A stretch of 9,444 nt of DNA, from the IMG/VR virus record IMGVR_UViG_2695420714_000010. One strand, 5' to 3'. Under the pieces are notes generated by a model. The model saw only the letters and a program-made list of their open reading frames with translations, was not told where the DNA came from and made no database searches. The DNA is from a virus (taxonomy: Duplodnaviria; Heunggongvirae; Uroviricota; Caudoviricetes). Shown one piece after another: positions 66-8,508 of the stretch; position 1 is the stretch's first letter, and each line of letters opens with the position of its first letter. Made by a program: the position numbers and the translations under genes.

Positions 66-633
66 TATCGCGTCCTCAACAATGAATTTTGTGATGCGAT
101 GCCTGGTGCCTCCAGGTGACGTTAACCAGTTAACAATTAACGCCGGATACAGAGAATCCACCCATAACACTGTTTTTGGTTTTAACTGTTCCGCGTGCGC
201 TCAGCCGCATTCACCACATCACAAAATTCACTTTAAAAAGGGCGGCAGAGCAGTCACGGAGTAAAACTGATACCGCCAAACGTCACCAGAAAATTGATAA
301 CAGAGGGCGTTGCAGCGGGGTTGTCACTTAAGCGTATGGTCAACCTGACAACCCGGTGTCCTCAACGGGGGAAGGAATAACCCCGCCATACTTACCGCCG
401 CGCCATTTCGCGGATTGCCACAACCGGAAGCGCACGGTCGACGAAAATTTAACGACAGGCTATCTATGAACCAGCTACCTCGCCGTGCGCTTTCGCGTTA
501 TGGTCTGACTTTTCAGGGAAATATCCTTTCAGTAAACTGTCAATGCCGGATGCTCACCCGTGTCCGGCGCACGCACTCCACCTCACCCGTGGAGAACTCC
601 TTAATTACTAACCTTAGCTTTGTTGATTAGCTA

Positions 634-1011: not shown

Positions 1012-1248
1012 TCACTCACCTGAGTTTCTTTCCAGCCAGCGACGGGCACCATTTTCGGTTTTAAACGTTTTGCTTTTGGTATACGTCATCGCGGTGAACG
1101 TACCGTCCTGGTTGGGAAACACGCCGTACACCAGAGATTCGTTGTTGCCAAGATCGATAGTATCCATGTTGACCTCATTTCCCCTTAACGCCGGGGTAGC
1201 GGAACAAAAACCTGCTGCATAGTTATTAAAGTTGAACCCTGCCGTCAT
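1012..1248 (-). CDS. small early-left-operon protein; 78 aa from ATG 1248, or 51 aa if it starts at the internal ATG 1167 (MDTIDLGNNESLVYGVFPNQDGTFTAMTYTKSKTFKTENGARRWLERNSGE)
   Basis: ORF-track ORF. Both candidate starts have a GAGG-type Shine-Dalgarno (GAGG 8 nt upstream of 1248; GAGG 7 nt upstream of 1167). It is the first gene downstream of the leftward operator/promoter region. Possibly YdaF-like (DUF1391) from memory; not verified. Confidence 0.45.
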   Translation of the reverse strand: MTAGFNFNNYAAGFCSATPALRGNEVNMDTIDLGNNESLVYGVFPNQDGTFTAMTYTKSKTFKTENGARRWLERNSGE

Positions 1249-1349
1249 GTTCTTACGCCTCGGGCTGGCTACTTAACCCCTGACCACTGCCTGGTAACTC
1301 GAAGTATTGCCCTGCATTCTGTGGGGTGGGGTGGGTTGGTATGAAAGGA

Positions 1350-1392
1350 AGGATACCCATGGGTATCCAAAAAGTAAATACCCATGGGTAAT
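1350..1392. promoter_or_regulatory. OL-like operator pair overlapping a candidate leftward promoter
   Basis: Perfect 18-bp palindrome GGATACCCATGGGTATCC at 1351-1368 and a second site ATACCCATGGGTAAT at 1378-1392. On the minus strand: candidate -35 TTTACT (plus 1378-1373), 17-bp spacer, -10 TATCCT (plus 1355-1350). The palindrome sits across the spacer and -10, which is classic repression geometry. Confidence 0.5.
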
Positions 1393-1432
1393 TTTTTGAT
1401 GTGTCTTAACTGGTGACTGGTTGTTTGGTGAG

Positions 1433-1852
1433 TTATGATGCGTTTTGTGCTTTCTTTTTACGGATTTCTTCGTAGATCATATTGTAATACTGTTTTTTCT
1501 CTTCAAGAGTTTTTAATAAGTTATCCGCTTCACTTTCTGGCAGTTCGTCTAAGAGATCTAAAAAAATACGTTGTCGTGGCGTTAGAACCCTTGTTTCATA
1601 ATTGGAGGCTGTGTTCGTTGATGATGAAACGATACCATCCATCCATCCCCGGGGTAACCCAAAGGACTCTTCTATAATCTCCACCATATCATCAGCGATC
1701 CGTTTTTTTCCTTTTTTCCCCTCTGGGTACAACATTCTTGATACATAAGAAGGCTCGCGACCGATCTTTCTGGCCACGTTAACCGCTTTACCATCGCATT
1801 TCTCATCACGAATTTTGATGAGTTGTTGTCGTCTAAATTCATATTTGTCCAT
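1433..1852 (-). CDS. phage repressor, HTH (Xre/CI-like) DNA-binding protein without a peptidase domain (RacR-like architecture), 139 aa from ATG 1852
   Basis: ORF-track ORF 1433-1894, but the start at 1894 is TTG; the first ATG at 1852 gives MDKYEF.... HTH-like segment KAVNVARKIGREPSYVSRMLYP. Sits between two operator clusters and is divergent from a cro-like gene. No Ser/Lys S24 peptidase domain (too short). Confidence 0.7.
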   Translation of the reverse strand: MDKYEFRRQQLIKIRDEKCDGKAVNVARKIGREPSYVSRMLYPEGKKGKKRIADDMVEIIEESFGLPRGWMDGIVSSSTNTASNYETRVLTPRQRIFLDLLDELPESEADNLLKTLEEKKQYYNMIYEEIRKKKAQNAS

Positions 1853-1952
1853 AGGTAAATAATAGATGCGATTACCGCAAGGTAAACAACCCAAGGGTAT
1901 TGACTTTTGTTTACCTGTGGGTATTCTTTGCTGTGTTTACTAAGGAGTAGCT
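1853..1952. promoter_or_regulatory. OR-like divergent promoter/operator region between the repressor and the cro-like gene
   Basis: Operator-like sites ACCCAAGGGTAT (1889-1900) and ACCTGTGGGTAT (1913-1924) match the OL palindrome half-sites. Additional inverted repeats TTACC-GCAA-GGTAA (1872-1885) and GGTAAACAA / TTGTTTACC (1881-1889 / 1908-1916). Rightward promoter: -35 TTGACT (1900-1905), 16-bp spacer, -10 TATTCT (1922-1927). Leftward -10 TATTAT (plus 1864-1859) ends 6 nt before the repressor ATG. Confidence 0.5.
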
Positions 1953-2234
1953 ATGGAAGAATTAAGAATATTTCTCAATTCTCTTTCGTCAGATGAACAG
2001 CGTATGTTTGCATGTGAGTGTGGTACTAGCATCGGTTATCTAAGAAAGGCATTGAGTAAAGGTCAAATGTTAGGGGCATCGTTATGTGTCCTTATTGAGC
2101 GAGCCAGTAATGGTGAAGTTACACGTCAGCAACTAAGGCCTTTTGATTGGATGAATATTTGGCCCGAGCTGGAAGATACCAAAACGTTAACACAACCACT
2201 TACTAGGAGCTTGATTCATGAAAATCAAGCATGA
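1953..2234 (+). CDS. Cro/YdaS-like small HTH regulator (93 aa)
   Basis: ORF-track ORF with a strong Shine-Dalgarno AAGGAG 5 nt upstream of ATG 1953. Divergent from the repressor. Carries an HTH-like segment (GTSIGYLRKALSKGQ) and the NIWPEL-type C-terminal motif I associate with the YdaS/Cro family. Stop overlaps the start of the next gene. Confidence 0.65.
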   Translation: MEELRIFLNSLSSDEQRMFACECGTSIGYLRKALSKGQMLGASLCVLIERASNGEVTRQQLRPFDWMNIWPELEDTKTLTQPLTRSLIHENQA

Positions 2235-2643
2235 ACACATCCGCATGGCGATGAATGCCTGGGCGCGTCCTGATGGCGAAAAAGTTCCAGCAGCTGGAAT
2301 AACCCAGGCTTATTTTGAGTTGGGTATGACGTTTCCTGAACTGTATGACGACAGCCATCCGGAAGCCCTGGCTCGCAATACCCAGAAAATTTTCCGCTGG
2401 GTAGAGAAAGACACCCCTGATGCAGTTGAAAAAATTCAGGCGTTGTTACCAGCGATCGAAAAGGCAATGCCACCTTTGCTGGTGGCCAGAATGCGCAGCC
2501 ACAGTTCAGCTTATTTTCGGGAGTTGGTGGAGACGCGGGAGCGACTGGTGAGAGACGCTGATGATTTTGTCGCAGTGGCAATCGCCGGTTTCAATCAGAT
2601 GAACCGTGGTGGCCCGGCAGGAAATGCTGTGGCAGTACATTGA
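2218..2643 (+). CDS. YdaT-like / CII-like regulatory protein (141 aa)
   Basis: ORF-track ORF, AGGAG 9 nt upstream of ATG 2218, overlapping the cro-like stop by 17 nt (operon coupling). Its position immediately after cro and before the replication gene matches lambda cII and Rac ydaT. Family assignment rests on synteny and memory, not on a search. Confidence 0.5.
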   Translation: MKIKHEHIRMAMNAWARPDGEKVPAAGITQAYFELGMTFPELYDDSHPEALARNTQKIFRWVEKDTPDAVEKIQALLPAIEKAMPPLLVARMRSHSSAYFRELVETRERLVRDADDFVAVAIAGFNQMNRGGPAGNAVAVH

Positions 2644-2714
2644 CTGACAATAGCCATATCGAATCGCTTCCGGCAATTCGTGAGTAAAAAGATTCGGTAT
2701 CAGAAGAGGTGAGT

Positions 2715-2873
2715 ATGGCTAACGCCTGGCTCAGATTATGGCATGACATGCCAAATGACCCTAAGTGGCGAACAATTGCCAGGGTGTCAGGGCAGCCAAT
2801 TGCAACAGTGATGGCAGTGTATATCCACGCTCCTGGTGAGCGCGTCACGAAATGTCACGCGAGGTCACATTGA
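2715..2873 (+). CDS. N-terminal segment of a phage replication initiator (MANAWLRLWHDMPNDPKWRTIARVSGQPIATVMAVYIHA...), terminated prematurely inside an iteron block
   Basis: ATG 2715 with GAGGTGAG Shine-Dalgarno. The 52-codon frame ends at TGA 2871-2873 after reading through iteron sequence (RVTKCHARSH). The N-terminus has the A-W-x-R-L pattern typical of phage replisome-organiser N-domains (recognised from memory). The downstream ORF continues in the +1 frame. Confidence 0.45.
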   Translation: MANAWLRLWHDMPNDPKWRTIARVSGQPIATVMAVYIHAPGERVTKCHARSH

Positions 2874-3786
2874 TGTCACGACAGAAGATTTGGCAAGTGC
2901 GCTCGACGTGACAGAAGAGGTAATTGATTCAATTTTGCAGACGATGCAGGGGCGGGTACTTGATGGTGATTTAATCACTGGATGGGAAAAACGCCAGGTG
3001 CTTAAAGAGGACAACGGCAATATTTCGCAAACCGCAAAATCTCCGGCAGAGCGCAAGAGGGCGCAGCGTGAGAGGGAAAGAAAGCGGGAACAAAATGGCG
3101 ATTGTCACGGCGCGTCACGAAATGTCACGCACATGTCACGACGAGTCACGACAGATAAAGATACAGATAGAGATACAGATAAAGAAGATCAAAACACTAT
3201 GGTCCATGGCGTAAAAAACGCCACGAACCATGTAGGGGATGTTCAGACCGTCACTCCTGGCCAGCCCGCAGGCACGACACCGGAAGCCGATTCAGCGTAT
3301 GCGCTGAAAGCCGATTCGGGCGCTGTGCAGCAGGCGATGACCGCTGGGCCGGAGCAATCACACCAACTGCAGCAGCCTGAAGCCGATTCCGCCATTCAGC
3401 GGGAAGCCGATCGGGTAGTCCCGGAAAACACCGGGCAGCCTGTGGGACGAGTGGATTATCCGGATGTGTTCGAACAGGTCTGGCGGGAATACCCGTTACG
3501 AGCCGGGGCAAACCCGAAGAAATCCGCTTTCAGTGCCTGGAAGGCCAGATTACGCGAGGGGGTGCCACCAGAGGCCATGCTGGATGGTGTAAGGCGTTAC
3601 ACAAGATACCTGGCTGCTACCGGGAAAACGGGAACGGAATTTGTTCAGCGAGCGACGACGTTTTTTGGACCGGACCGGAATTTTGAAAACCCCTGGTTGC
3701 TCCCGGTAAGCGGCACGAACAACCAGCGTTGTGTTAATCATATTTCTGAACCGGACACCGAAATTCCGCCGGGATTCAGAGGGTAA
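2836..3786 (+). CDS. replication initiator (O-like / YdaU-like), main ORF in the +1 frame relative to 2715; contains the origin iterons
   Basis: ORF-track ORF (GTG 2836; frame open upstream back to 2812). Domain-end motif ...DGDLITGWEKRQ, followed by iteron-encoded and acidic/basic linker sequence (DKDTDRDTDKED), then a C-terminal domain (YPDVFEQVWREYPLRAGANPKKSAFSAWKARL...). Iterons inside the gene mirror the lambda O/ori arrangement. Confidence 0.6.
   Translation: MSASRNVTRGHIDVTTEDLASALDVTEEVIDSILQTMQGRVLDGDLITGWEKRQVLKEDNGNISQTAKSPAERKRAQRERERKREQNGDCHGASRNVTHMSRRVTTDKDTDRDTDKEDQNTMVHGVKNATNHVGDVQTVTPGQPAGTTPEADSAYALKADSGAVQQAMTAGPEQSHQLQQPEADSAIQREADRVVPENTGQPVGRVDYPDVFEQVWREYPLRAGANPKKSAFSAWKARLREGVPPEAMLDGVRRYTRYLAATGKTGTEFVQRATTFFGPDRNFENPWLLPVSGTNNQRCVNHISEPDTEIPPGFRG
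2844..2880. repeat. iteron block A: four GTCAC(G/A) repeats at 10-11 bp spacing; contains an exact 21-bp copy of part of block B
   Basis: GTCACG at 2844, 2854 and 2875, GTCACA at 2864. GCGCGTCACGAAATGTCACGC (2840-2860) is identical to 3100-3120. Coincides with the frame break in the initiator gene. Confidence 0.55.
3104..3186. repeat. candidate replication origin: five GTCACG iterons (3104-3150) followed by three tandem 12-bp repeats ACAGATA(A/G)AGA(T/A) (3151-3186)
   Basis: GTCACG at 3104, 3114, 3124, 3135 and 3145 (one helical turn apart), followed by an A-rich tandem repeat. Lies in the inter-domain linker of the initiator gene, as in lambda ori. Confidence 0.6.
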
Positions 3787-3823
3787 CAGATTTCAGGTCA
3801 TGGGGTAATTTTCAGGAGGGCTT

Positions 3824-4099
3824 GTGGCAAAAGTTTTTACTCCCGAACTGCGGGAAGAAGTGAAGGCGCGCATTGTGGAACTGGTACGCAGAGATGGGCG
3901 AAAAACGCGTAAACAACTGGAAAATGAAACCGGGGCGACGAGACACCTGATAGAAGTTCTGGTGAAAGAGCTGGTAGTTAGTGGCGCAGTATATGGTTCA
4001 GGACATGGAATATTTCCTTCGGAGCAGGCTCGTAAGGACTGGGGAAAAGCCCGCAAAAAAAATGTCGAGAGCGGCAGTGAAAAAGAAGAGCGACCCTGA
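3824..4099 (+). CDS. small DNA-binding protein with a predicted winged-helix/HTH and a lysine/glutamate-rich tail (91 aa); possible regulator
   Basis: ORF-track ORF. GTG start at 3824 with a strong AGGAGG Shine-Dalgarno 4-5 nt upstream. HTH-like segment TRKQLENETGATRHLIEVLVKEL. Confidence 0.5.
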   Translation: MAKVFTPELREEVKARIVELVRRDGRKTRKQLENETGATRHLIEVLVKELVVSGAVYGSGHGIFPSEQARKDWGKARKKNVESGSEKEERP

Positions 4100-4232
4100 C
4101 CTGATTTATTCATTGCTAGATGGCGAAATACGCCGTTACAACAGACGACAGAATATAATTTGTCGCGAGTGTCGTCAGAGCGAAGTTATGCAGCGCATAC
4201 TGGAATTTTATCAGGGAAATGTTCGGTATTAA
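4059..4232 (+). CDS. small hypothetical protein (about 57 aa, MSRAAVKKKSDPDLIYSLLDGEIRRYNRRQNIICRECRQSEVMQRILEFYQGNVRY)
   Basis: Part of ORF-track ORF 3981-4232. The N-terminal part of that ORF overlaps the 3824-4099 gene out of frame, so ATG 4059 is preferred. No convincing Shine-Dalgarno. Could instead be the frameshifted continuation of the upstream gene. Confidence 0.25.
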   Translation, partial: KMSRAAVKKKSDPDLIYSLLDGEIRRYNRRQNIICRECRQSEVMQRILEFYQGNVRY

Positions 4233-4376
4233 TTGAAGTGACGAAATTAAAGAGCATTAGTTCAGATATTAATTGACACTTCGATGGCACAGGCCCAGAC
4301 CTAGTCTGGTTGTCAGCTTTGAGCTAGGTGAACGTTGGTATCGTTAGTTTGTATTAATCAACGGAGAATAGGCCAA

Positions 4377-4407
4377 ATGACTTTTCTTTGCCTCTTTTAA
4401 TTATAAT
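4377..4407 (+). promoter_or_regulatory. candidate sigma70 promoter for the 932-aa gene
   Basis: Perfect -10 TATAAT at 4402-4407 in an AT-rich intergenic region, with a weak -35 (ATGACT at 4377-4382, long spacer). Lies about 70 bp upstream of ATG 4476. Confidence 0.3.
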
Positions 4408-4475
4408 TCAAGTTCAATTGATTACATTGAAGTACTAATGTGAGTCCGTCAAACAAATAGCTCAAGGAATAGGTC

Positions 4476-7274
4476 ATGTGGGGAAGTGAAAACAAACAAA
4501 ATCTGGACGTACTGGATCCTGTGCAGTTGGTGCGTATCGAAGCGGTACACCGGGGGTTCCTTTACCAGCATCTTTACGCTGTAGGCTGCTTACTTTTGGC
4601 GCAGAGGGCAGCTATGGACTCAGTAACTGTCGAGCTTGATGAGGATATTGAGCTGAAATCCAAACAGGAACGTCTCTACATTCAGGTTAAAACCCGTTCA
4701 AAACCTATTATGCCCAACGATGTGTCGGGGGCTCTGGAGCGATTTGTAAAGCTCAGAAATGAGCATACTTCGGCAAACCGCGAAGGGGTGGCTTCTTTTG
4801 TGATTATTGTAAACCAGGCGCCTGGACCGCTGCTTCAGAAGATGATTGACGATAAAAAGCTTCCTTCTGATGTTCTTATTGTCTGGCCCCAGTCGACAGC
4901 TGGACGTCACCCGGCACTTCCGCCCGCATGGAGTACTCTGGCTGATGCGGCCACATGGTGTATCGCAGAAGCAGAAAAGCTGAAATTTTCACTATTGTCC
5001 CCAGAATCCTTGATTTGGAAGTTAGCAGGATTGGTTCAGCTTGCCGCCACCGGAGGCGATACCAATGGACAACATACGTTTTTCACGGAAGAACTTACTG
5101 AACTATTTGAACAGTTGATCGTTCAGCTACAGGACTTTCCTGCACCACCAGCACTGTACCGCCCACAGAACGAAGAACCTTCTCTCACATCTGGTGAGCG
5201 GATCCGTATCCTTTGTGGACTCTCAGGTGCAGGCAAGACAGCTTGGGCCGCACAGGCCGCATTACACTCCACTGCACTTTGTGCTTATTACGACACCGGT
5301 GATCTTCCCGGTCCAGCTCTGGCCAGTACGCTGGTGCGCGAGATGGCTGCTAGATTTACAGCCCGTGACCAAGACGGTTTGCGCAGGATTTTGCTCCCCG
5401 GTGCCAGTGGTTTTGAGGCTCTTAGGAGTTTTGATACCTACCTGAAAGAGCAGGGTACCACCTTGGTGCTGGTTCTGGATAACGCCCATCGTGTACCTGC
5501 GGAAAATCTACTGGATGTTCTGAATGCAACTACACATATTCGTTTTGTGCTGTTGTGCCAGCCTCACGAAAACGTTCGCGAACTGGAGGTCATGACGGGG
5601 CTACAGCGCGAGGGCCTGCAGGGATGGAATCTCGATACGGTAGCTGTCGTTGTAAACGATATCGGAGGATTTGCCACCGCTATGGGATACGAGCAGCTAC
5701 GGGCTTACACTGGTGGTCTTCCCCTGTATGTAGAGAGCGCCGCAAAAATCGCCGTTTCTGATTATGAGCGTAATGTCGATGCTCTGTGTGCTGAACTCCA
5801 GCAACAAACCCATACTGCGGAAACCGCCCAAGAAATTATTCTGTCACGTGTATTTCAGGGATTTGAATCACTACTTCAGAGCGCGCTGGCATTGTTCAGT
5901 CTCTCTGACGTAGGGCTGAGTCGCGAAGAGATTTCTACGCTCCTAATCAATTCGCTGAACATTTCACCAAGCAGTGCTGCTTCTTTAATTAGGAAAATGC
6001 GCGCTACTGGCACTATTGAAATTTATGGAAACCAGACCCTGAAGGTACATGATGCTGTCAGGGGGCTAGGACTGCAACATCTGGAACTGATGGATCAGGG
6101 TATATCGAACAAAGCGCTACTAGCGCTGAAAGACCTTTTAGTTGAAAGTCTTCATAATACCCGCAATACAAAACGGTTATCGTTGTTGACTCAACTTTAT
6201 ATTAAGCTCAATGATGTCACGACGTTGATCGAACTCTCAGGCCAAGAAATGTTTTATGAGATGGGCGTGACGGTCGACATTCTTGCAAGCTTGGAGCGTG
6301 CTGCAACATCGGACTTATTGGGACCTGTTCATAAATTCTGGGCATTGGATGGCCTTGTTTTCGTTGAGCTTAAAGACGGAATATCCGACCACATTGCTCA
6401 GAGGTTAAACATCATGGGAGCTTTACTTGCGGAGCACAAGTTCGGCTATCAAGAAGAGATGGCCTATGCAATGAAACGAATGTTATTTTCGGCAGAAAGC
6501 AATGATGCACGAGAAGTTCAAAAGCTGGCACAGGAAGTCCGCCCCCAACTCCCAGATGAAGAACATAAACGCATCTTTGACTACAACCATGCCATTGCAC
6601 TCTGGAGATTAAAAAAACTCAAGGATGCTGAAACATTAAGCTGTAATGTTATACAAGGGTACTATTCTTTATTTGGTATCACACCTGCTGATGTCATAGG
6701 AAAAAACGCCGACGCATTATGGAAAACTATTAATCATTCCGAAAATATGCAGGAACACTTTAAACATATGGCTGATGCTCTGGAGTTGCTGGCCAGAATT
6801 CGTGATGCGCAGGGAAAACTGTCACCATTACTGCGTATTCATTCGATGAAGTTCTACAATCTGGCCATGGCCCCGGAATCCATGGTCAGGGTGGGCCAAG
6901 ATCTGGCGGATGAGTTTGTTGCCATAAAGGATTACGACGGTGCCAAGGAAGTCATGGAGCAACATGTCCTGCCGGTTGTCAATGAGGCAGGTCTAGTACA
7001 TCGACTGATTCAGGTTCGAAGCCAATACGCAGTCATATTAGCACTATCGGGTCAGCATAAAGCAGCTGATGTCGAAATGCAGCGCCTTGCTCCCTATATC
7101 GAAGGCCTCACAGGTGTACAGCGTCAAGAAATCCAAAATCAATCAAATTACATCGTACAGCTTGCCCATAAAGCAGCAAAGACTAAATTAACTGAAGTTT
7201 TTGGTGCGGTCGGCCGGAATGAACAATGCCCCTGTGGCTCGGGAATAAAGTACAAAAAATGTCACGGTGCCTGA
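4476..7274 (+). CDS. large multidomain protein (932 aa): N-terminal PD-(D/E)xK-like nuclease region, STAND-type P-loop NTPase, winged helix with VHD motif, helical-repeat C-terminal region, terminal SEC-C zinc motif; candidate antiviral STAND (Avs-like) defence protein
   Basis: Single uninterrupted ORF with AAGGA about 10 nt upstream of the ATG. Walker A ILCGLSGAGKT (nt 5217-5240), Walker B TLVLVLDNAH (nt 5463-5483), VHD motif KVHDAVRGL (nt 6042-6068), SEC-C CPCGSGIKYKKCHG (nt 7227-7268), N-terminal VELDEDIELK...YIQVK (nt 4632-4691). The gene is certain; the function is inferred from motifs only. Confidence 0.85.
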   Translation: MWGSENKQNLDVLDPVQLVRIEAVHRGFLYQHLYAVGCLLLAQRAAMDSVTVELDEDIELKSKQERLYIQVKTRSKPIMPNDVSGALERFVKLRNEHTSANREGVASFVIIVNQAPGPLLQKMIDDKKLPSDVLIVWPQSTAGRHPALPPAWSTLADAATWCIAEAEKLKFSLLSPESLIWKLAGLVQLAATGGDTNGQHTFFTEELTELFEQLIVQLQDFPAPPALYRPQNEEPSLTSGERIRILCGLSGAGKTAWAAQAALHSTALCAYYDTGDLPGPALASTLVREMAARFTARDQDGLRRILLPGASGFEALRSFDTYLKEQGTTLVLVLDNAHRVPAENLLDVLNATTHIRFVLLCQPHENVRELEVMTGLQREGLQGWNLDTVAVVVNDIGGFATAMGYEQLRAYTGGLPLYVESAAKIAVSDYERNVDALCAELQQQTHTAETAQEIILSRVFQGFESLLQSALALFSLSDVGLSREEISTLLINSLNISPSSAASLIRKMRATGTIEIYGNQTLKVHDAVRGLGLQHLELMDQGISNKALLALKDLLVESLHNTRNTKRLSLLTQLYIKLNDVTTLIELSGQEMFYEMGVTVDILASLERAATSDLLGPVHKFWALDGLVFVELKDGISDHIAQRLNIMGALLAEHKFGYQEEMAYAMKRMLFSAESNDAREVQKLAQEVRPQLPDEEHKRIFDYNHAIALWRLKKLKDAETLSCNVIQGYYSLFGITPADVIGKNADALWKTINHSENMQEHFKHMADALELLARIRDAQGKLSPLLRIHSMKFYNLAMAPESMVRVGQDLADEFVAIKDYDGAKEVMEQHVLPVVNEAGLVHRLIQVRSQYAVILALSGQHKAADVEMQRLAPYIEGLTGVQRQEIQNQSNYIVQLAHKAAKTKLTEVFGAVGRNEQCPCGSGIKYKKCHGA

Positions 7275-7551
7275 GTCTTTGTACGACCATGCGGGCCTTA
7301 TTGTCTTGCTATTGCTCTTATGGTTCGCCTTTCTGATTGATTTCATATTGGCGAGGTGACGGGAGTTAAGTAGAATGGCTGCGGGTGCTTGAGGCTATCT
7401 GTCTCAGGCATGAACACCAAAGGCAGATAGAGAAAAGCCCCAGTTAACATTACGCGTCCTGCAAGACGCTTAACATTAATCTGAGGCTCAATCTATGAAC
7501 GGCAAATCTAGGTTAGCCTCTTACGTGCCGAAAGGCAAGGAGAAGCAGGCT

Positions 7552-7707
7552 ATGAAGCAGCAAAAGGCGATGTTAATCGTCCTGATCGTCATCTGTTTAA
7601 CCGTCATAGTGACGGCACTGGTAACGAGGAAAGACCTCTGCGAGGTACGAATCCGAACCGGCCAGACGGAGGTCGCTGTCTTCACAGCTTACGAACCTGA
7701 GGAGTAA
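7552..7707 (+). CDS. hokD: Hok/Gef-family membrane toxin (51 aa), HokD/RelF-like
   Basis: MKQQKAMLIVLIVICLTVIVTALVTRKDLCEVRIRTGQTEVAVFTAYEPEE: single hydrophobic helix plus the conserved LVTRKxLCE...EVAVFxAYE signature of Hok/Gef toxins. Matches my recollection of E. coli RelF/HokD almost residue for residue. AAGGAG about 9 nt upstream of ATG 7552. The ORF track extends the frame to 7495, but the 51-aa form fits the family. Confidence 0.8.
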   Translation: MKQQKAMLIVLIVICLTVIVTALVTRKDLCEVRIRTGQTEVAVFTAYEPEE

Positions 7708-7775: not shown

Positions 7776-7802
7776 AACCCGCTTCGGCGGGTTTTGTTTT
7801 TT
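7776..7802 (+). terminator. rho-independent terminator downstream of hok
   Basis: AACCCGC-TTCG-GCGGGTT stem-loop followed by TTGTTTTTT. Confidence 0.6.
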
Positions 7803-7874: not shown

Positions 7875-8153
7875 ATGGCGCACGATACCAAATTACACAA
7901 TTCTAATGATTCTGCTGTCTTTGCCAGCAGGTGCGGACGGCGTTTTCACGCATTCACATCAGACTGGTTCCAGCATCCTCCATGCACTGAAGAGCAGGCT
8001 GAATGGATAATTCAGTGTTACCGCAGGCGTGGATACGAGGTTAAGAAAGCTCTTAGTCTCGACTATCGTCACTGGATAATCTCAGTCAGACTCCCTTACT
8101 CCGAACGCCCACCGCGTCCGTCCCGCACATTCCAGCAACGCATCTGGAGGTAA
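7875..8153 (+). CDS. small prophage protein, copy 1 (92 aa; conserved core WFQHPPCTEEQAEWIIQCYRRRGYEVKKALSLDYRHWIISVRLP); possibly Rem-like by position
   Basis: In-frame ATG inside ORF-track ORF 7746-8153. The upstream part of that ORF overlaps the hok terminator and has no counterpart in the paralogue at 8575, so the start is placed at 7875. Translationally coupled to the next gene. Confidence 0.55.
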   Translation: MAHDTKLHNSNDSAVFASRCGRRFHAFTSDWFQHPPCTEEQAEWIIQCYRRRGYEVKKALSLDYRHWIISVRLPYSERPPRPSRTFQQRIWR

Positions 8154-8468
8154 CGTGCGGGTATTACTTCGACCTGTTCTGGTACCGGAACTCGGGCTGG
8201 TGATCGTTAAGCCGGGCCGTGAATCCATGCCGGTATTCCACAATACCCGGGTACTGGTGGAGCCGGAACCGAAAAGCATGCGTAATCTGCCGTCCGGGGT
8301 CGTTCCTGCCGTTCGCCAGCCGCTGGTGGAAGACAAAACATTGCTGCCGTTTTTCAGTAACGCACGGGTGATTCGTGCTGCTGGTGGTGCTGGTGCATTG
8401 TCTGACTGGCTGTTGCGCCATATTAAATCCTGCCAGTGGCCACACGGCGATTATCATCACAGCGAAAC
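7875..8468. repeat. direct repeat, copy A of the small-gene + DUF968 cassette (paired with 8575-9168, offset exactly 700 bp)
   Basis: From about 7961 to 8468 the sequence is near-identical to 8661-9168 by eye. The 5' 85 bp (7875-7960 vs 8575-8660) are homologous but diverged. Confidence 0.7.
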
Positions 8469-8508
8469 AGGAATAAAAGCAGGCTTTTCAGCTTTTGCAG
8501 AAGAATAA
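8155..8508 (+). pseudogene. 3'-truncated DUF968 (YdfU)-family / NinG(Rap)-like protein, copy 1 (117 aa, homology lost after ...HGDYHHSET)
   Basis: GTG 8155 immediately after the upstream stop, with GGAGG 5 nt upstream. Near-identical to the first 105 codons of the gene at 8855, then diverges at 8469 and stops at 8506-8508, before the CWHCDN zinc-finger-like segment present in copy 2. Confidence 0.55.

Follow-up and report, generated by a model that had tools for sequence, protein, structure and literature searches.

The DNA analysed here (9,444 nucleotides of a Caudoviricetes virus, IMG/VR record IMGVR_UViG_2695420714_000010; hereafter the window) raises the question of what separates the replication module of a lambda-like Escherichia coli prophage from its hok/sok locus, at the position where the Qin prophage of E. 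coli K-12 carries the toxin-antitoxin genes relBE. An earlier note on this DNA had placed an accessory insertion at 3787-7551 and had described the 2.8-kb gene upstream of hok as resembling STAND proteins (signal transduction ATPases with numerous domains). An accessory segment does occupy the relBE slot, although its true limits are 4325-7297, with DUF977 and the hok leader belonging to the prophage backbone; and the STAND-like nature of the gene is borne out by its predicted fold and motifs. We consider it likely that this segment is a cassette acquired horizontally as a single-gene unit into a cargo slot that is hypervariable among Rac/Qin-type lambdoid prophages and runs from DUF977, where the replication module ends, to hok/sok, and that it encodes an antiviral STAND (Avs) protein, similar to nucleotide-binding leucine-rich repeat (NLR) proteins.

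The limits were established by BLAST of the window against six prophages in which other DNA lies between DUF977 and hok (L002, L003, L006, L007, L008 and L015). Homology breaks at 4324 and 7298, the same positions against all six; because both breakpoints recur, the accessory segment is 4325-7297, and because homology runs to 4324 and resumes at 7298, both DUF977 (3824-4232) and the hok leader (7298-7551) belong to the conserved backbone. The interval is organised as follows.

3824-4232, plus strand: DUF977 (ydaW-like) gene, frameshifted; conserved left anchor.
4233-4324, plus strand: conserved left flank, which ends with what is kept of the left palindrome (outer arm and spacer; see below).
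4233-4475: AT-rich gap of 243 nt between DUF977 and the large open reading frame (ORF).
4325-7297, plus strand: accessory cassette of 2,973 nt, made up of a leader and one gene.
4325-4475, plus strand: leader of the cassette, in which sequence and GC content make a promoter and a ribosome-binding site probable.
4476-7274, plus strand: large gene of 2,799 nt (932 amino acids), with the predicted order nuclease, STAND, tetratricopeptide repeat (TPR), SEC-C.
4518-5120, plus strand: N-terminal PD-(D/E)xK nuclease domain, about amino acids 15-215.
5178-6095, plus strand: STAND nucleoside triphosphatase (NTPase) module, about amino acids 235-540, with nucleotide-binding, helical and winged-helix parts.
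6096-7199, plus strand: TPR-like helical repeat domain, about amino acids 541-908, the presumed sensor.
7215-7268, plus strand: SEC-C zinc motif CPCGSGIKYKKCH, amino acids 918-930 (Pfam PF02810).
7298-7551, plus strand: promoter and leader of hok together with the sok region, including a promoter-like site at 7348-7376; conserved right anchor.

A second copy of the cassette (L018) has 91.8% DNA identity across window positions 4295-7298 and lies in an integrase-linked island with type I restriction-modification (R-M) genes. On this contig (Logan SRR29289004, L018 1999-5003) the cassette, its leader and about 30 nt of prophage-type left flank stand directly 3' of a P4-type integrase gene. As the identity spans 4295-7298, the mobile unit consists of the gene with about 180 nt upstream, which fits a promoter inside the cassette; and as the leader is 93% conserved by comparison with the L018 copy, it moves along with the gene. 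The leader contains a perfect -10 hexamer (TATAAT, 4402-4407), and AAGGAA is found 8-13 nt before the ATG. Expression in a lysogen would most likely be driven from this AT-rich leader.

Horizontal acquisition had previously been argued from the AT-richness of the 3' half of the large gene and of the region upstream. Both are indeed AT-richer, at 45.3% GC for the 3' half (50.7% for the 5' half) and 37.0% for the intergenic region 4233-4475; the cassette leader (4325-4475) has 33.8% and the whole cassette 47.4%, with 51.2% in the replication module and 53.0% in the right flank. However, the repressor and cro genes that belong to the prophage itself fall even lower, to 39-40%, so this difference, although real, is weak as evidence of transfer and was set aside as proof of it.

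The large gene is rare. Of 5,426 complete E. coli genomes, 16 have it and 4,976 match the query in some stretch, chiefly the hokD flank; none of the 66 readable IMG/VR slots described below contains it. In one genome (NZ_OZ546984.1, 360990-366328) the STAND gene is cut by ISEc52, an insertion sequence of the IS3 family, into parts annotated as 'dsDNA nuclease domain' and 'SEC-C'.

Other prophages carry different DNA between the same anchors. Cargo in sampled complete genomes comprised DUF5677; an FRG-domain gene; a DUF4209 gene; QueH with a methyltransferase fragment; a two-gene set; and DUF7167 with small ORFs. In PADLOC the FRG protein matched PDC-S15 (E 1e-99) and the DUF4209 protein PDC-S39 (E 1e-103), both of them candidate systems. 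A further 80 IMG/VR loci were gathered via the DUF977 protein, and the slot was taken as readable in the 66 that had hok within 6 kb. These 66 loci held 24 cargo types of 0.5-5.3 kb each, with a GC content of 34-44% in 18 of the 24. PADLOC matches were obtained for nine types, as listed here.

Type 4: a CBASS oligonucleotide cyclase, adjoining a 212-amino-acid protein.
Type 7: PDC-M68B.
Type 8: AbiH.
Type 11: an FRG-domain protein like the PDC-S15 match, as judged by identical length and N-terminus.
Type 13: Tmn.
Type 15: NsnA, NsnB and NsnC.
Type 16: a Lit-like protein (PADLOC) with a RES-domain protein (Pfam).
Type 17: an AbiU-like protein.
Type 22: Hp2 and Hp3.

The conserved anchors, together with a defence-rich cargo that differs between related elements, support the interpretation of this slot as a prophage defence hotspot, in agreement with the earlier proposal of a moron or defence hotspot at this position. 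Several cargo proteins had no PADLOC match and little or nothing in Pfam: L058 (834 amino acids), L041 (463), L049 (329), L027 (269) and L054 (340 and 333). These are candidates for undescribed defence genes, which makes the slot an inexpensive place to look for more. The 834-amino-acid protein of L058 carries a P-loop, GTVGAGKT; and one two-gene cargo set has a weak match to a HEPN/RES N-terminal domain.

Given that relBE had been named as the module which the large gene replaces, we compared the window with K-12 Qin, in which the gene order given in the earlier note (relB-relE-hokD-rem-ydfU) was confirmed, with ydfT following. By BLAST, the matches of K-12 to the window are limited to 1-1205 and the part from 7538 onward; nothing in K-12 Qin was matched by the window's immunity and replication region (about 1206-4324). 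From the end of relE to hokD in K-12 is 71 nt (L004 9276-9346), and homology with the window begins 14 nt 5' of the hokD start codon, so that K-12 hokD lacks the whole stretch of hok promoter, leader and sok (window 7298-7537) which is intact in the window. In K-12, judging from this alignment, the relBE segment has taken the place of the hok promoter/sok region. This fits the place of hokD (relF) in K-12, where it comes third in the relBEF operon. The link between the two kinds of cargo is provided by E. coli ECA64, whose Qin-type prophage has kept its replication genes and has the order DUF977, methyltransferase fragment, IS3, ydfV fragment, relB, relE, hokD, rem, ydfU. Because relBE of ECA64 sits between the same anchors, relBE and the large gene share one slot, and the suggested replacement holds to that extent; the two are not bounded identically, however, as the right junction of the K-12 relBE segment corresponds to window position 7538, 240 nt further right than that of the cassette. 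The genes after hok also agree in part with what had been described: hokD, a small gene and a DUF968/ydfU-type gene do follow one another, but the small gene, a 92-amino-acid ORF, is not rem and instead matches an unannotated stretch of K-12 between rem and ydfU. The classic K-12 relBE locus can thus be regarded as one occupant of this cargo slot.

Three Pfam families matched the 932-amino-acid protein above their cut-offs: Cap4_nuclease (amino acids 25-77), AAA_22 (239-364; 32.6 bits against a cut-off of 27) and SEC-C (914-931); AAA_16 scored 21.4 bits, under its cut-off. An alignment and an AlphaFold model were produced with 29 homologues, and motif conservation was followed down to 49% identity. 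In the N-terminal domain, residues E53, D55, D57, E59, Q70 and K72 are invariant or nearly so, and on this sequence evidence it is a Cap4/LmuA-like PD-(D/E)xK nuclease with predicted activity. The NTPase module has a Walker A motif (GLSGAGKT, 248-255) and a Walker B motif (LVLDN, 331-336), in which G248, G251, G253, K254, T255 and D335 are invariant across the 29 homologues; an invariant or nearly invariant GGLPLY (413-418), which forms the GxP motif in the helical domain of STAND proteins; and KVHD (523-526, with VHD at 524-526), of which K523, H525 and D526 are invariant and which forms the MHD-like motif of the winged-helix domain.

The AlphaFold model has a mean pLDDT (predicted local distance difference test) of 79.8. 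Its best match in the PDB by Foldseek is 6mfv (E 1e-13; template modelling score 0.61 by target; 737 columns over the NTPase and TPR parts). Plant NLR resistosomes and Cdc6/ORC come next, and the matches to the N-terminal part are HamA and Cap4. The structural comparison gave figures of 15-20 for TPR proteins, 13.4 for LmuA, 13.3 for SeAvs3, 12.5 for Cap4 and 12.3 for MalT (362 residues). By modelled fold and by its GxP and VHD motifs the NTPase module is of the STAND type. The TPR part, of about 370 amino acids, is followed by the SEC-C tail (PF02810, E 8e-10), a C-terminal CxC...CH zinc motif like those of SecA and YchJ; some family members stop near residue 900 and lack it. Such a tail is unusual for a STAND protein.

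The family comprises 386 clusters at 50% identity (E <= 1e-30), with a coherent length of about 930-960 amino acids, and extends through Enterobacterales, Vibrio, Shewanella, Aeromonas, Pseudomonas and some Betaproteobacteria. Relatives in sequenced phages are confined to two metagenomic 'Bacteriophage sp.' records, with 39% and 34% identity. Elsewhere the homologues are stand-alone genes, in the following settings.

Yersinia enterocolitica: neighbours are an OLD-TOPRIM ATPase and a UvrD helicase.
Vibrio cholerae: neighbours are a pair of the same kind, AbiH and a PIN-domain gene.
Pseudomonas: neighbour AbiH, in a metal-resistance island.
L018 (copy 92% identical): neighbours are the P4-type integrase, DUF4365 and type I R-M genes.

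We read the pair of OLD-TOPRIM ATPase and UvrD helicase as Gabija-like. Overall, the protein shows each testable feature of STAND NTPases and of Avs proteins in the broad sense: a single chain combines effector, NTPase and repeat sensor in a tripartite, Avs-like build, and defence genes or mobile elements lie nearby, both next to its homologues and, as known defence systems, in the slot itself.

In Avs proteins that combine a Cap4 nuclease with STAND and TPR parts, phage proteins bind the TPR sensor, and the tetramers that they induce activate the nuclease (PMC13581612). By analogy, the resting protein would be an autoinhibited, nucleotide-bound monomer, and the trigger would be a protein or other product of the infecting phage that binds the C-terminal TPR array. 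Binding would open the STAND module and permit nucleotide-dependent oligomerisation; the oligomers would bring the N-terminal Cap4-like nuclease domains together and activate them, and indiscriminate cutting of DNA by the nuclease would abort the infection. Peptides of the SEC-C type bind SecB and ribosomes. The SEC-C tail may likewise tether the sensor to SecB or the ribosome, which would echo the use of EF-Tu by Avs7.

A number of observations weigh against an antiviral STAND protein expressed from its own cassette. The Walker B motif (window 5466-5483) is D-N, with N336 invariant in the family, by comparison with the usual acidic pair, and because of this NTPase hydrolysis may be slow or absent. 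Profile comparison with PADLOC-DB v2.0.0, which includes Avs1-5, Avs8/PD-lambda-4 and bNACHT, gave no Avs, PD-lambda or NLR match to the large protein; the Avs7 and Avs10-24 clades, from a set of 589 STAND clades and 90 sensor clusters (PMC13581612), lay outside this comparison. A sequence search of the PDB (phmmer, single sequence and profile) likewise returned no solved Avs, the only matches being SEC-C peptides (the SecA C-terminal peptide and YchJ). The sensors that define Avs families have at least 400 amino acids (PMC13581612), more than the TPR part of this protein. Part of the slot cargo is non-defensive, namely a BCCT transporter with DUF2254, and QueH. The promoter of its own that the earlier note gave the gene is plausible in view of the -10 hexamer and the mobile leader, but a consensus scan reported no promoter in the leader under its spacing rule, nor any terminator downstream of the large gene between 7275 and 7297. 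Finally, expression of the gene is not assured because its host prophage is decaying (see below).

Some of these points bear on other explanations of the locus. The protein could be a defence protein that monitors DNA ends, replication intermediates or the damage of host takeover, as in Lamassu, Hachiman and Gabija, with the ATPase gating the nuclease and the TPR/SEC-C part serving as a scaffold or as a tether to a host factor. LmuA and HamA as the closest N-terminal matches, Gabija-like neighbours in three genomes, a TPR part that is short for an Avs sensor, and a SEC-C tail matching peptides that bind SecB and ribosomes would all be in keeping with this. We nevertheless regard it as unlikely, given that the NTPase is of the STAND type (GxP, VHD and a MalT/PH0952-like fold) and not an SMC (structural maintenance of chromosomes) protein, helicase or ABC (ATP-binding cassette) ATPase, that the cassette contains no partner gene, and that the effector-STAND-TPR proteins tested so far sense proteins (PMC13581612). 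It is very improbable that the gene is non-immune altogether, either a MalT-like STAND regulator or a selfish nuclease-ATPase hitch-hiking in variable regions: MalT is among the structural matches, no source gives a functional name and part of the slot cargo is metabolic, but this large protein has no DNA-binding output domain, its N-terminal nuclease keeps the catalytic residues, its homologues adjoin known defence genes in four unrelated settings, and the slot is rich in known defence systems.

The remaining alternative concerns the insertion itself. Were the large gene ancestral to the prophage lineage, and lost or replaced in other prophages, no insertion would have taken place; two-way comparisons alone give no direction, and the flanks on the left side are just 75-78% identical to those of other prophages. 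This has hardly any probability in our estimation, when set against the 16 of 5,426 genomes and none of 66 readable IMG/VR slots with the gene, the copy of gene plus leader, 92% identical in DNA, that an unrelated integrase island carries, and the fact that the cassette removed the right palindrome and 254 nt that are common to six other cargo variants. We therefore retain the reading of a horizontally acquired cassette with an antiviral STAND gene.

The palindromes just mentioned bracket the variable DNA of related prophages that carry other cargo, in the form of two similar 11-6-11 repeats. The left one is TTGTCCGCTTT-GTGCCA-AAAGCGGACAT and the right one, about 335 nt upstream of the hok RNA, is ATGTCCGCTTT-TCGCTC-AAAGCGGACTA; they are found in L002 (4604-4644 and 5590-5620), L003, L006-L008, L015 and the IMG/VR loci L023-L098. 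Intact palindromes fold as strong hairpins (z -4.6 and -4.2). Of the left palindrome, just the outer arm and the spacer persist in the window (TTGTCAGCTTTGAGC, about 4308-4324); the inner arm is degenerate, and no hairpin is predicted for this version. The left junction of the STAND cassette falls in the spacer of this site. The right palindrome is missing from the window, the right junction of the cassette being 254 nt past the right site. A homologous site is also located upstream of the gene in the integrase-island copy (L018). Outer arms and spacers do not change from one cargo type to another, the inner arms vary by cargo, and in types 11, 14 and 16 both inner arms have the same deviation. 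With outer arms and spacers staying with the prophage and inner arms going with the cargo, this is what cassette exchange would be expected to produce. No cassette arrays were seen inside multi-gene cargo, which had one palindrome per end only.

Copies of this palindrome with various spacers were also found in further viral contigs, apart from DUF977/hok (L100, L102, L109 and L127), two of which had no match in the phage collection, and a sequence of the form (A)TGTCCGCTTT-N6-AAAGCGGACA(T) is repeated in Alphaproteobacteria (Pseudolabrys, Xanthobacteraceae, Rhizobium and Sphingomonas) as well as in some further lineages, Lysobacter among them. A genome scan for the palindrome returned at least 120 loci; genome contigs with it include L143-L222 (e.g. 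L183 669-7676). These genomic palindromes are often paired, 44-45 nt apart, and lie between predicted ORFs where inspected; the genes between palindromes in one alphaproteobacterial contig were not diagnostic, consisting only of FMN_bind_2 and GYD domains. The recurrence of the palindrome in Alphaproteobacteria, often in pairs, would suggest a widespread recognition system, new for defence cargo. Intrinsic terminators were ruled out, as no T-run follows the palindromes on either strand, and no Rfam family matches the palindrome. The palindromes may be recombination sites, protein-binding sites or hairpins resembling repetitive extragenic palindromic sequences that provoke recombination. Exchange of cargo by a dedicated mechanism acting on the two related but non-identical palindromes, through a site-specific recombinase or a hairpin-recognising enzyme, is a doubtful proposition at present; if they were recombination sites, however, the turnover of such slots could be explained.

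The remainder of the window, outside the cassette and its anchors, contains the following features.

Left end of the window, minus strand: homologues of ydfC, ydfB and ydfA, with DicF RNA.
240-291, minus strand: DicF small RNA (Rfam, 76.7 bits), adjoining the ydfC/B/A homologues as in K-12 Qin.
1433-1894, minus strand: repressor gene.
Right of the repressor: a YdaS-type cro-like gene, then a YdaT gene.
Ending at 3786, left of DUF977: replisome-organiser gene.
7552-7707, plus strand: hokD coding sequence (Pfam HOK_GEF), annotated as hokD in the identical locus L001.
7776-7793: terminator-like hairpin after hokD, from the scan.
7875-8153, plus strand: 92-amino-acid ORF, from the annotation of L001.
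8155-8508, plus strand: 5' part of a DUF968/ydfU-type gene, truncated by a non-homologous junction at 8469.

The hok/sok locus is intact (HOK_GEF, E 1e-22; Rfam sok RF01794 at 7383-7557, with 110 bits against a gathering score of 59). DUF977 is split into two overlapping ORFs (3824-4099 and 3981-4232), both matched by Pfam PF06163, and is annotated in L001 as 'DUF977 family protein, frameshifted'; the integrase of this identical prophage is frameshifted too. The host prophage is decaying and probably defective, while its putative defence gene is intact.

How does this protein relate to systems already described? Its sole PADLOC matches are LmuA at the N-terminus (weak, E 5e-7) and SEC-C-containing models at the C-terminus. 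Filing it under a named system was attempted and rejected because PADLOC and NCBIfam gave just marginal matches, LmuA/DUF4297 N-terminally and SEC-C C-terminally. Database names are generic ('SEC-C metal-binding domain-containing protein', 'AAA family ATPase'), and its accession, WP_000264572, appears in no paper searched; this is a family without a name or a test in the searched sources, although the kind of protein is known. In 2022 Gao and colleagues reportedly described Avs proteins, SeAvs3 among them, that carry a Cap4-type nuclease at the N-terminus. By comparison with SeAvs3 and SeAvs7 there is no sequence match, and the 932 amino acids contrast with the 2,028 of the SeAvs3 chain; its TPR part of about 370 amino acids and its D-N Walker B also set it apart from Avs proteins, as does a SEC-C that we did not find reported for them. 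The best whole-chain structural match, PH0952 of Pyrococcus horikoshii (6mfv), is a STAND NTPase with a TPR sensor but has 641 residues and 15% identity; since the alignment covers only the NTPase and TPR parts, its chain has no counterpart of the nuclease or the SEC-C tail.

LmuA, HamA and the CBASS Cap4 (DUF4297/PF14130) share the N-terminal fold and a D...QxK-type active site, but act with separate partners (the SMC protein LmuB, the helicase HamB and a cyclic-nucleotide SAVED sensor, respectively), whereas in the large protein the nuclease is fused to STAND-TPR. Lamassu was not supported, as no LmuB SMC neighbour accompanies the single gene of 4325-7297; and Upx, a single-gene nuclease sensor, was ruled out because it lacks a STAND NTPase and has its nuclease C-terminally. 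Compared with relBE-hokD (relBEF) of K-12 Qin, the cassette fills the same DUF977-hokD interval, as seen in a Qin-type prophage that keeps DUF977, but relBE is a type II toxin-antitoxin pair rather than a STAND gene and has another right junction. What the locus offers is a compact single-gene candidate immune sensor with its own leader, from a family of several hundred 50%-identity clusters across Gammaproteobacteria.

Prophage-encoded STANDs have been noted, from Brenes and Laub (2025), by Lee et al. (2026; PMC13581612), and the concept of defence hotspots in phages and satellites such as P2 and P4 is already established (Rousset et al., 2022; PMC9122126). No description of the DUF977-hok slot was found in the searched literature, which did not extend to Brenes and Laub (2025); DUF977 itself gave one unrelated paper, and the DefensePredictor and Vassallo (2022) papers mention neither this slot nor the architecture of the large gene. 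Like the P2 and P4 hotspots (PMC9122126), the slot has conserved anchors around a short variable segment rich in known and candidate defence systems; it differs in belonging to Rac/Qin-type lambdoid prophages, in its DUF977 and hok/sok anchors and in having its cargo bracketed by 11-6-11 palindromes. It is now defined at base level in very common E. coli prophages, with about one-third of the sampled cargo types matching known or candidate defence systems.

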